Positions 9,989 through 30,282 of a DNA stretch of 64,000 nt are shown here, piece after piece. The stretch is taken from NCBI GenBank assembly GCA_965214705.1, contig OZ243972.1, positions 96,001 to 160,000 on the forward strand, given 5' to 3'. The translations under genes and the position numbers were made by a program. The notes under the pieces are model-generated. The model worked only from the letters and a program-made list of their open reading frames with translations. It searched no databases and was not told the DNA's origin. The stretch is from Alphaproteobacteria bacterium (GTDB lineage: Bacteria; Pseudomonadota; Alphaproteobacteria; UBA828). How positions within the stretch are numbered: the first letter of the stretch is position 1; every line of letters starts with the position of its first letter.

Positions 9989-10702
9989 ATGGCCCACGCA
10001 TCTCCCGCTCCCGTCGAAGACGACCCGCAGGCCGTCGATGTCGCGGCCAATCTGGCCGTCGTTACCGCCGAGGTCCAGGACGCGGCGCGCGCCGCCGGAC
10101 GCGACGCGCGCGAGATTACGCTGATCGCCGTCTCCAAGGGACACCCCCCGAGCCGCATCCTGCCCGTGCTCGCCGCCGGCCACGCGACCTTCGGCGAGAA
10201 CAGGGTGCAGGAGGCGAGCCGGAAGTGGCAGGCGCTTCGCGCCGAATGGCCTAGTGCGGTGCTTCACTACATCGGCGCGCTGCAGACCAACAAGGCGCGG
10301 GACGCCGTGGCGGTCGCCGATGCCATCCACGCGATCGACCGGCCGAAGCTGGCTGCAGCGCTCGCCCGCGAGATGGACCGCCAGGGGAAGCGCCCGGACT
10401 GCTTCATTCAGGTCAACACCGGTGCCGAGCCGCAGAAAGCCGGCGTGCTGCCGGATAGCCTCGATGCACTGCTCGCCCAGTGCCAAAGCGATCTGATGCT
10501 GCCGGTGGTCGGGCTCATGTGCATCCCGCCCGCCGCCGAGGACCCTGCCCCCCATTTCACATTGCTAAGGGAGCTGGCCGCACGCCACGGGCTCCGCAAG
10601 CTCAGCATGGGCATGTCGGCCGATTACCGCACCGCGATCGCGCTTGGCGCCACCCACGTCAGGATCGGCACCGCGATCTTCGGTGCCCGGCCCGCGCCCT
10701 AG
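9989..10702 (+). CDS. yggS: PLP homeostasis protein (YggS family)
   Basis: LIAVSK, FGENRVQE, IGALQTNK, LSMGMSAD and VRIGTAIFG motifs; ATG at 9989. Confidence 0.92.
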   Translation: MAHASPAPVEDDPQAVDVAANLAVVTAEVQDAARAAGRDAREITLIAVSKGHPPSRILPVLAAGHATFGENRVQEASRKWQALRAEWPSAVLHYIGALQTNKARDAVAVADAIHAIDRPKLAAALAREMDRQGKRPDCFIQVNTGAEPQKAGVLPDSLDALLAQCQSDLMLPVVGLMCIPPAAEDPAPHFTLLRELAARHGLRKLSMGMSADYRTAIALGATHVRIGTAIFGARPAP

Positions 10703-10790
10703 CCCGAACTACGATGCGTCCGGCTCGCCGGGGAGCCTGGGAGATGAGAGGCGACCGCCGGCGCCCTTGGCAGGGGCTTCGCCCTCCTCA

Positions 10791-10926
10791 GAGCGCGTCC
10801 GTCTTTGACGGACGCGCGACAGGCCGCGACTGCGGCCCGCCGCTCCTGCGGCGCCATCGCGCGCCCGCGCGCGTGGACGCGCGACGCGGAGGCGTCGGCC
10901 GTAGGCCGGCTGCCGTGAGCGATAAA
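10791..10926. repeat. Multi-hairpin intergenic repeat, family B copy 1
   Basis: Aligns with 51781-51898; four GC stems, ending TGAGCGATAAA. Confidence 0.85.
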
Positions 10927-25122: not shown

Positions 25123-25197
25123 CCCGCGTTTCTCGCCAGGGTCGCGTCCCACGCGGCCTCGCCCGTTCCCCGGTGGGACAGGCAAACAATAATTTCA

Positions 25198-25381
25198 TGC
25201 GGGACGAGCCGGGATCATGCGGGATTCCCGGCGACAACCGCTCGCCGAGATGGTGTTCGATGGGACAGCAGCCGGGCACATCCAACTTGCTGTCCACACC
25301 TGCCACGACCCGCCCGCGCCTGCTCATCATGGCGCCATCGTGACGCGCCCGCCGCGCGCCGTGCAGCGCACCATGGTCCGG
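25198..25381. mobile_element. Miniature gene-less relative of the DUF3486 locus
   Basis: Carries 10-bp-phased units TGCGGGACGA/GCCGGGATCA/TGCGGGATTC and the 21-mer GTGCAGCGCACCATGGTCCGG, shared (20/21) with 28724-28744. Confidence 0.55.
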
Positions 25382-27732: not shown

Positions 27733-27874
27733 CGCGCGCGGCAGCGGACACGGAGTTTGCCACAATGGGGACCGGGCTGCGCAGCAGCCCGGAGCGCGCG
27801 ACCGCGCGCCGCGCCGAAGGCACGTAAGCCAAGCGAACGGAGTTCGCGCCCGGCGACTGAGGGGAATCAATAAA
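27733..27874. repeat. Multi-hairpin repeat, family A copy 1 (3' side of the DUF3486 gene)
   Basis: Aligns in direct orientation with 28820-28960. Confidence 0.85.
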
Positions 27875-27885
27875 GCACCCGCGCC

Positions 27886-28692
27886 TCACTCCGGCCCGAG
27901 TGACAGGATCGATGTGGGGCTGGTGCGAAACACCCGCGGAGCGATTTCCGTCCAGGATTCATAGCGATGATCCGGGCTCAAGTGGGATTCGCCGGGATCA
28001 GGTGGGATTGCGTGAGATTCGTCGGGATTGACCGGGACTGCGGGGAACTCTGCGGGATTCCACGGGTCCACCGGCACCGACGTGACGGTGCGGGGAGCAG
28101 GCGGGGGCGGCGGGGGCCTGCCCTCCACCTCCGCGCGGATGATGGCGACCGCCTCCGGCGAGAGCCCGCCCTGATCCTTGGGCTGGCCGGCGCGTGCCGC
28201 CTTCTTCGCCGCCCGCTCCCGGTCTTTGCGGAGCTTGTCGGTGCCTTCGATGCGCTTGAGGGTGAGGGCGAGGCGGGCGAGCTCCTCCGTCGACACGGGC
28301 TCTTCCCGCGCGCTGAGACGAGCCATGGTGGCGAGCGCCATCGTCCGCAGGGTCTCGATCAGGATGAGTCCCGCCTGGCCCTCCGGCCGTTCGCCCAGCG
28401 CGTCCACCCACGCCTTGATGGTGCGGTCGGTCTCCTGCTGCTGGCGGATCAGGTCGCGCTCGTTCTTGGCGTAGCGGCCGACGGCCGAGCGCGAGCATGT
28501 CTCGCCCTCGGCCCGGATGCGGGCGGTGATCTGGTCGATGGTGGCGCCGTCCGCGATGGCCTGATCGACGGCCTCGCGCAGCTTGGCCGGCAGGCGGTCG
28601 ATGGAGGAGCGGCCGAACGTCCCGGCCGTTGTGCTCTTGGGGGGTTCAATTTGCATGGCGTGGCTGTGCTCGCGGGTGGTGTTGTGGCTCAT
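27886..28692 (-). CDS. DUF3486 / phage Mu gp27-family protein (probable terminase small-subunit homolog) with Pro-rich C-terminal extension
   Basis: RSSIDRLPAKLREAVD...ATIDQI...SRSAVGRY and C-terminal GLSPEAVAIIRAEVEG are characteristic of Mu gp27-like proteins. Alternative ATG 28656. Confidence 0.8.
   Translation of the reverse strand: MSHNTTREHSHAMQIEPPKSTTAGTFGRSSIDRLPAKLREAVDQAIADGATIDQITARIRAEGETCSRSAVGRYAKNERDLIRQQQETDRTIKAWVDALGERPEGQAGLILIETLRTMALATMARLSAREEPVSTEELARLALTLKRIEGTDKLRKDRERAAKKAARAGQPKDQGGLSPEAVAIIRAEVEGRPPPPPPAPRTVTSVPVDPWNPAEFPAVPVNPDESHAIPPDPGESHLSPDHRYESWTEIAPRVFRTSPTSILSLGPE
27951..28070. repeat. 10-bp-period tandem array (consensus nnnGGGATTn) inside the DUF3486 gene 3' end
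   Basis: Consecutive decamers: tccaggattc atagcgatga tccgggctca agtgggattc gccgggatca ggtgggattg cgtgagattc gtcgggattg accgggactg cggggaactc tgcgggattc cacgggtcca. Confidence 0.9.
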
Positions 28693-28768
28693 CCGGCGAT
28701 GCTGCCCCACGCCGCCCCTCCCTGTGCACCGCACCATGGTCCGGTTTCTCTCCCCGGCAGCCAACGAA

Positions 28769-29056
28769 GCGTTTGCCCTGATGGGACCGGGCCGCGCAGC
28801 GGCCCGGTCGGCGCGACAGCGCCGCGCGGAAACAGACAGAGTGTTTGCCATGTGTGGAGCCAGGCTGCGGAGCAGCCTGGAGCGCACGACCGCGCGCCGC
28901 GCCGAAGGCGCGTAGGCAAGCGAACGGAGTGAGCGCCCGCCGTTGAGGGAAACGAAAAAGTGCGAGCGCCCGGCAATTGAGGGAAATGATTAGGTCAGGT
29001 CCGGAGCGCGCGACCGCGCGCCGCGCGCGCCTGGCGTCTGAGGGAAATGAATAAAC
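28769..29056. repeat. Cluster of family A repeats: full copy ~28820-28960 plus partial copies ~28769-28816, ~28961-28990 and ~29001-29056
   Basis: Recurrent GTTTGCC..hairpin, GGAGCGCRCGACCGCGCGCCGCGC and TGAGGGAAA motifs. Confidence 0.85.
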
Positions 29057-29532: not shown

Positions 29533-30282
29533 ATGAATCAAGTGCCCCCATCAATCCATGAAACCGCCTTTGACTGCCCTCACTGTGGGGCGTTTGCGCA
29601 GCAGTCTTGGTTTTCGCTCACAGCGAACACAGAATACATTAGAGACAGACTTCCCATTGATGTCAGAGAATATGTTTTTCCTAATGCGGTTAATAATCAG
29701 CCGGCAATTCGCGATGCCGTTTTGGAGGGGTTTCCCGCTCTAAATCCTGTACGGAGCCAACCGGCATCTGCAACATTGTATTGTGTGTTTATTTCTAGTT
29801 GTTTTCGTTGCAAGAAAGTCGCAATTTGGATAGGCGACAACCTGATCTATCCGCAGAGCCGTGTGGCTCCTCCTGCAAACCCTGACCTCACAGGTGAAAT
29901 CCGTGAAGACTACGACGAAGCCAGTAGTATTTTGGATTTATCACCTAGAGGGGCGGCGGCACTTCTTCGACTCTCTATTCAAAAACTCTGTAAAGAACTC
30001 GGGCAGCCAGGAAATAACATTAACGACGACATCGCGGCGCTGGTTTCAGCGGGTTTGAGCCAACAGATCCAGCGGGCCCTGGATACGGTACGAGTCATCG
30101 GAAACAATGCCGTCCATCCGGGTCAGATTGATCTTCGCGATGATAGGGCAACTGCGCTCAGTTTGTTCACATTTGTTAACCTGATCGTAGACAAGATGAT
30201 ATCCGAGCCTAAGCGTGTCGCAGAAGCTTATAATAACTTGCCTGAAAGTGCGCGAGACGCAATCAAGGAACGTGATGCGTGA
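29533..30282 (+). CDS. DUF4145 (HEPN-like) protein with N-terminal Zn-ribbon cysteines; low-GC, probably acquired
   Basis: CPHCG and CFRCKK; DYDEASSILDLSPRGAAALLRL; RVIGNNAVHP (R-x6-H). Visibly AT-richer than its flanks. Confidence 0.8.
   Translation: MNQVPPSIHETAFDCPHCGAFAQQSWFSLTANTEYIRDRLPIDVREYVFPNAVNNQPAIRDAVLEGFPALNPVRSQPASATLYCVFISSCFRCKKVAIWIGDNLIYPQSRVAPPANPDLTGEIREDYDEASSILDLSPRGAAALLRLSIQKLCKELGQPGNNINDDIAALVSAGLSQQIQRALDTVRVIGNNAVHPGQIDLRDDRATALSLFTFVNLIVDKMISEPKRVAEAYNNLPESARDAIKERDA

Follow-up and report, generated by a model that had tools for sequence, protein, structure and literature searches.

A 10-bp-phased GGGAT array in an orphan small-terminase-like gene: a candidate Mu-type packaging signal in a dispersed one-gene cassette

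Introduction

What is a strictly phased 10-bp GGGAT array doing inside the coding sequence of an orphan phage-like gene, and does it act as peptide or as DNA? The question was raised by the window, i.e. the whole 64,000-nucleotide (64-kb) stretch of alphaproteobacterial DNA analysed here, in which the gene and the array overlap as follows.

27886..28692, minus strand: orphan gene of 268 aa resembling the small subunit of terminase (TerS), with a PF11985 core at about 28620-28120 and a probable leaderless start at 28692
27953..28072, plus strand: GGGAT-core array of 12 decamers, matching the left-end (pac-region) repeats of Mu-like phages

Results and Discussion

An orphan TerS-like gene

The gene is located between a short-chain dehydrogenase gene and a tRNA-Arg gene, with REP-like direct repeats on both sides. 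The PF11985 core leads into a Pro-rich linker, after which come the array and, at the C-terminus, a conserved peptide of some 20 aa. The core matched PF11985 (DUF3486, Mu gp27) with 88.4 bits against a cut-off of 28, and the gene product matched phrog_426 with an E value of 5.8e-30. A protein search revealed 827 relatives; among the best 120, the array-derived peptide was present in 109 and the conserved C-terminal peptide in 103. No second Pfam domain or fusion was detected in the best 120 of 255 longer homologues. Small terminases typically combine an N-terminal helix-turn-helix with a helical oligomerisation core. The structure predicted for the product was all-helical, with three short and then three long helices (pLDDT 84), and the best viral fold match of the model was another DUF3486 protein. 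Neither profile nor fold comparison gave a PDB match at E<=0.001, thermophilic TerS entries appearing in the fold comparison only at E 2.3-3.2. In a quick tree, 12 proteins from cassettes of the kind described below formed one clade apart from 12 phage TerS proteins (SH-aLRT 97).

The decamer array keeps its spacing strictly

Read on the plus strand, the array points back into the terminase-like gene. The preliminary description had reported in-phase GGGAT decamers free of indels, together with the encoded peptide repeats PWNPAEFPAV/PVNPDESHAI/PPDPGESHLS. The peptides are correct, and the decamers were borne out as 12 units at 27953-28072 in a single register with zero indels. The spacing is thus strict and the sequence degenerate: GGGAT is exact in 5 of the 12 units, has one mismatch in another 5 and two mismatches in the remaining 2. 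Self-identity at lags 10, 20 and 30 was 0.51, 0.57 and 0.60, respectively, whereas lags other than multiples of 10 gave 0.17-0.36; at each of these three lags, the array was the top 100-bp stretch of the whole 64-kb window. An RNA or hairpin role was considered and rejected, as predicted folding was no better than that of shuffled sequences on either strand (z 0.54 and 0.99); a search for an RNA family in Rfam gave just two tRNAs and one sub-threshold overlap.

The 10-bp period is a property of the DNA

We recoded the array synonymously while keeping the peptide fixed. With either of two codon models, none of 20,000 draws reached the observed lag-10 and lag-20 values, so that the lag-10 autocorrelation exceeds its synonymous-codon controls, the comparison proposed at the outset. 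The lag-30 value was reached in 1,381 of 20,000 draws with host codon usage; the 30-bp component is therefore largely explained by the peptide. Codon usage was counted in the 37 intact ORFs among 49 copies (5 are cut by contig ends and 7 are broken), which are related, so that the counts are non-independent. Arrays contained 57 AAT and 11 AAC codons, as against 1 AAT and 29 AAC in the core; TTA occurred 12 times in arrays and not at all in the core; and A preceded Ile/Val-Pro in 32 of 48 array cases. The array codons thus run opposite to the bias of the terminase-like gene, the GC3 of which is 0.92.

Arrays were also found outside coding sequences. In four relatives with intact ORFs (L035, L036, L043 and L045) the stop codon lies upstream of the array. 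Gene-less arrays occur in L002, in L004, twice in L041, and in the window itself at 25200-25229, as part of the following feature.

25173..25381, minus strand: gene-less mini cassette, with a promoter-like dyad of the same kind as that ahead of the gene (25366-25381), a short spacer, three decamers at 25200-25229, an A/T tract and an outer motif

One relative, L037, has lost its array. Since synonymous sites favour the motif and relatives carry the array after the stop codon or without the gene, the array is, on sequence evidence, a DNA-level feature. The earlier suggestion that the constraint lies on the DNA is upheld by the codons opposing the GC3 bias of the gene and by these arrays beyond the stop or without a gene. 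The further suggestion that the Pro-rich tail is read-through into a cis site gains support from the four relatives ending upstream of the array, and no homologue was seen to keep the peptide repeat while losing the 10-bp phase through synonymous changes, the pattern named beforehand as speaking for selection on the protein. What did not stand is the view of the peptide repeat as a pure by-product. Among 20 read-through copies, 18 have an array span divisible by 3 (the exceptions being one doubtful anchor and one stop inside the array), and the tail peptide after the array has a dN/dS of about 0.3, as compared to about 0.44 in the core (pairwise, 18 copies). In the subfamily of the window, the ORF appears to have read through into the array, which now also preserves the frame for the conserved C-terminal peptide. 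Across copies, 139 unit spacings are of 10 bp, 17 of 9 bp and 15 of 11 bp; slips of 30 bp could also be favoured by the stronger similarity at 30 bp.

A non-coding array in L043 (about 1400-1480) keeps the 10-bp period with a changed core motif and adjoins the most diverged protein (39% identity). This pair of array and protein would provide a natural test of co-evolution between protein and site.

Similar units occur at the left ends of diverse Mu-like phages

Plain DNA similarity between the array and phage genomes gave 3 weak chance matches and was discarded, the likeness appearing only with a periodic matrix. Such a matrix was built solely from the 12 decamers of the window and run over 16 whole records of Mu-like phages, 14 with a PF11985 protein and 2 with DUF1804. 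The left end ranked first genome-wide in 7 of the 14 PF11985 phages (Mu, Vibrio 1.136.O, ZX4290, Kp4866-3, B3, BcepMu and MuM16-1). Its rank was second for Mae-JY22, fourth for AFS-2018a and tenth for JBD25, rising to second for JBD25 if a single poor unit was tolerated; the end positions of ZX4290 and Mae-JY22 were assigned after the first matrix results. The other 4 of the 14 records, YPCBV-1, RC1, HS6 and MuM16-2, gave no high-ranking end match. The HS6 record is apparently permuted and that of MuM16-2 has trimmed ends, whereas YPCBV-1 gave no such match though its TerS is among the closest. For the two DUF1804 phages, RcapMu and D3112, no end was among the ten best matches; close to the left end of D3112 there is a single GGGAT. 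Phage scores of 13-20 bits overlapped the maxima of shuffled genomes, and the signal lies in position: in the Mu-like records the top match recurs within the first 150 bp of one end and on one strand. In Mu, four units at nt 32-71 share the register of the window array. A generic lag-10 scan of one Mu-like phage picked similar units near its probable end. In the reverse direction, a matrix trained on 40 phage units ranked the window array first and the mini cassette second, and placed the best match behind the gene in 38 of 43 loci (5 loci cut by contig ends left out; L040 unconvincing), both results being partly circular. Left ends of PF11985 phages with 3-4 GGGAT-type units at 10-bp spacing were noted by position: 32-71 (L051), 39-78 (L053), 31-70 (L058), 44-83 (L060) and 45-84 (L061).

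The pac site of Mu, at the left end where packaging of Mu starts, was reportedly mapped to about nt 32-58 in work of 1985-1990. The phased GGGAT units at the left ends of PF11985 phages are put forward as a candidate for a general pac code, and the likeness of the array to such diverse left ends offers a concrete, testable recognition motif for Mu-type DNA packaging. A Mu-type left end also carries a terminal TG and the L1 transposase site, which lie about 30-45 nt out from the first unit. By eye, an A/T tract is seen at many copies of the array together with a conserved outer motif at a distance of about 25 nt, a pattern that is not clear in the full copy of the window. The accessible parts of PMC8601537, PMC4406740, PMC5977238, PMC2628397, PMC10052514, PMC9936078 and PMC5000459 give no pac sequence for Mu, and PMC9611059, in the portion available, describes the reading of pac DNA by TerS proteins as still unsettled. 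Because the array is tied to PF11985 in both phages and cassettes, we infer that TerS reads it.

A promoter-like dyad marks the 5' boundary

28729..28744, minus strand: 16-bp imperfect dyad forming a sharp 5' boundary of the cassette; candidate site for a Mor/C-family activator
28699..28704, minus strand: conserved hexamer, candidate -10 element, at -12 to -7 from the ATG

The dyad was present in 47 of 49 copies, with a spacer to the hexamer of 23 nt in 36 copies and 24 nt in 11, and the ATG followed exactly 6 nt after the hexamer in 42 of 46. With the ATG as +1, the dyad is centred at -44.5 in the window and at -43.5 in most copies; the C site of Mu is centred at -43.5 according to the accessible text of PMC2582627. 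The late promoters of RcapMu and RC1 have the same layout of dyad, hexamer and start, and no sigma-70 consensus site was found at the cassette promoter. A promoter matrix ranked the true late promoter first only in RcapMu (1 of 15 phages), with a score within background, so that the likeness is one of geometry more than of sequence. In L047 the cassette begins with the dyad directly after an upstream stop codon.

Dyads without a terminase gene behind them were seen at L006 10779, L010 10799, L027 10901 and L037 5487, some ahead of or opposite host genes. These could place host sequence under control of a phage activator.

The cassette is dispersed in many copies

Promoter, TerS gene and an array of 3-16 units travel together as a cassette of about 0.9 kb at dispersed chromosomal sites. 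A scan of GTDB representatives revealed at least 48 loci in 16 assemblies, 15 of them labelled Alphaproteobacteria; 9 assemblies have two to seven copies, and on one complete chromosome seven copies are distributed across 1.6 to 5.3 Mb. The locus counts are lower bounds, as a further diverged copy and gene-less copies are present in the flanks. The hosts are represented by metagenome-assembled genomes. Two Mu-like phages supplied seven queries, namely two large terminases, portal, gp26, transposase, capsid and Mor; none of these, the large terminases included, gave a match in the 48 loci with their 6-kb flanks or in the window. Nearest ORFs, of which 64 of 85 were scanned (the rest being mostly repeats of the same site), were mainly housekeeping genes and included 4 GIY-YIG genes, 6 of transposase type, 1 serine recombinase (adjoining L034 only) and 1 DruA. 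Carriage on plasmids was looked for and set aside, only 7 distant matches being found.

Sites are common to different species, with a flank identity of about 85-96%. The core genes, in contrast, cluster by genome (14 label changes vs 26.8 in shuffled data), and a tree with one clade per site was rejected for sites A and C and not rejected for site B (p 0.105). In some loci, L027 among them, an upstream flank from one site adjoins a downstream flank from another, suggesting that copies recombine with one another. At the one empty site, in L033 as compared to L031, neither terminal inverted repeats nor a target-site duplication were apparent by eye. Broken copies numbered 7 of 49, and the core dN/dS of about 0.44 corresponds to weak purifying selection.

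The mini cassette of the window lies between ppx and tRNA-Leu, and the orthologous site in L002 and L004 has one too. This conservation in two other genomes suggests that promoter and array persist even where the gene is missing. In L041 (about 10050-10830, minus strand) REP-like repeats come after a dyad promoter, along with two arrays that lack a gene; the same A/T tract and outer motif accompany each of these arrays. In the window, the REP-like repeats beside the full cassette are as follows.

27735..27872, minus strand: REP-like hairpin repeat downstream of the gene, a direct repeat of the upstream copy
28755..29055, minus strand: REP-like repeat cluster upstream of the promoter, its best copy (28823-28952) 82% identical to the downstream one

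In raw counts, such repeats cluster in the 500 bp upstream of the core start, with 31 of 32 co-oriented, and between 500 and 1000 bp downstream, where 15 of 15 are co-oriented. Several families of REP-like hairpins pile up beside cassettes, in the flanks of many loci.

A proposed helper-dependent packaging cassette

We favour, with moderate confidence, the reading that the array is a pac-like signal of Mu type within a helper-dependent cassette that would redirect the headful packaging of a Mu-like phage to the chromosome. A Mor/C-family activator of the putative Mu-like helper would bind the dyad and turn the gene on late in infection. TerS of the cassette, or of the helper, would then bind the phased repeats on one face of the helix and recruit the large terminase of the helper; the link of a phased array to oligomer binding or wrapping, already proposed in the preliminary description, is likewise what we infer. 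The available part of PMC5557969 describes for Mu a first cut in host DNA outside one end, after which a headful is packaged. By analogy with the left end of Mu, the cut would fall outside the array and the headful would run through the terS gene into the flanking chromosome. Capsids would be diverted from the phage, and host DNA would be transduced with the cassette at its end. A transduced cassette may recombine with resident copies, giving homogenised copies and reshuffled flanks; homogenisation could be accounted for by the orientation, as the headful would include the terS gene itself.

If true, no smaller element that hijacks packaging would be known so far, and uncultured Alphaproteobacteria would have a way to trade chromosomal DNA, or to hold Mu-like phages in check, that requires neither satellites nor a gene-transfer-agent cluster. 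A broader claim, which we put forward tentatively as possible, is that one-gene, integrase-free, dispersed promoter-TerS-pac units form a new class that turns any infecting or induced Mu-like phage into a machine for lateral transduction or gene transfer of the chromosome, is spread and homogenised by the resulting particles, and reveals a 10-bp-phased GGGAT pac code common to the Mu gp27 family. All the components are familiar from phages, and the novelty lies in how they are assembled, in how many copies they occur and how they have spread. The literature searched contained no account of a cassette of this kind, and older Mu papers, mostly outside it, may already note the left-end repeats of Mu.

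Alternative explanations

The cassettes might instead be packaging start points for domesticated parts of a gene transfer agent, with a Mu-derived capsid, large terminase and activator cluster located elsewhere in the host. Seven copies spread over 1.6 to 5.3 Mb of one complete chromosome, sites common to several species and the conservation of gene-less copies with promoter and array would all fit. Such a system, however, needs no redundant TerS gene at every site; many copies decay; and the orientation is unbiased relative to replication, no strand bias being found from the GC skew of flanks (18 of 33). We regard this explanation as unlikely.

Just as unlikely, in our judgement, is a role in anti-phage defence, in which the promoter would serve as a sensor of a Mu-like activator and the extended TerS would poison the phage terminase or titrate it away, the arrays acting as decoys and any gene transfer being incidental. 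A phage-type promoter without an activator gene and an added C-terminal tail kept in frame speak for it, and in other phages the C-termini of TerS contact TerL, as the available portion of PMC9611059 reports. The deep relatives L035, L043 and L045, however, have a protein of normal length, the neighbours are mostly housekeeping genes, and the copies homogenise as a transferred element would.

Somewhat more doubtful is an inert relic, i.e. a deleted Mu-like prophage that left behind promoter, gp27 and left end, copied passively with the REP-like repeats, the array being a bending or transposase-related signal of the left end. Copies do lie in intergenic hot spots that are rich in repeats and contain GIY-YIG and IS genes, pseudogenes are frequent and dN/dS is high, and many arrays are preceded by an A/T tract that resembles the end of the L1 transposase site. 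Passive copying sits poorly with dyad, spacer, hexamer and start being conserved even where protein identity drops to 39%, and with a 10-bp period that outlives turnover of the motif in L043; moreover, the two transposable phages with another TerS family have no array.

Hardly credible, finally, is a 10-residue Pro-rich linker with an accidental 10-bp period: the frame is kept in 18 of 20 copies and lag 30 is strongest, but 0 of 20,000 synonymous recodings reach lag 10 or lag 20, and arrays outside ORFs and without a gene contradict it.

Comparison with known systems

The packaging modules of Mu, B3 and BcepMu share with the cassette the protein family (PF11985, phrog_426), the phased GGGAT units and the late-promoter geometry. 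In Mu-like phages, gp27 belongs to the late operon, where it immediately precedes the large terminase, and the genome end has 3-4 units, whereas the cassette fuses promoter, gene and 3-16 units in less than 1 kb with no other phage gene. Satellites of the SaPI/PICI type redirect packaging with a TerS and pac of their own. For the PLE satellite, mimicry of pac is described in the accessible part of 10.1101/2024.04.22.590561. The logic proposed here is alike in being helper-triggered, with the parts that give packaging specificity supplied or mimicked. Unlike these satellites, the cassette has no integrase, replication module or single att site; it is one gene bounded by host genes (64 of 85 nearest ORFs scanned), occurs in many dispersed copies, is made of Mu-type parts and would move the chromosome rather than an excised element.

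The pseudo-pac sites of generalized transduction by P22 are likewise chromosomal, pac-like starts for packaging of host DNA (PMC10996546, as far as available), but the cassette arrays, rather than being chance look-alikes, show conservation and amplification and come with a TerS gene and a promoter of their own. In gene transfer agents such as RcGTA, a host-encoded small terminase could similarly drive packaging of host DNA (PMC6854486, in part); the cassette differs in having no structural cluster nearby, in being multi-copy and in its specific cis array. Mini-Mu, from the accessible part of PMC10052514, is also an internally deleted Mu-like unit with a left-end-like sequence. The cassette, in contrast, has no second end and no transposase (no MuA match in the 48 loci and the window), and its 5' boundary is the promoter dyad.

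Further observations on individual loci

A copy in a bin labelled Acidobacteriota (L025, 6001-6399) is 95% identical to copies in an alphaproteobacterial bin, reflecting either cross-phylum transfer or mis-binning of the 7-kb contig. At L028, L034 and L042, three to four copies are grouped close to AAA_25 genes and a serine recombinase, perhaps within an integrated element. The array of 16 units in L028 contains recent 30-bp duplications. In the window, a low-GC DUF4145 gene (29533-30282) lies just downstream of tRNA-Arg; it is absent at the orthologous sites compared and is likely a recent insertion.
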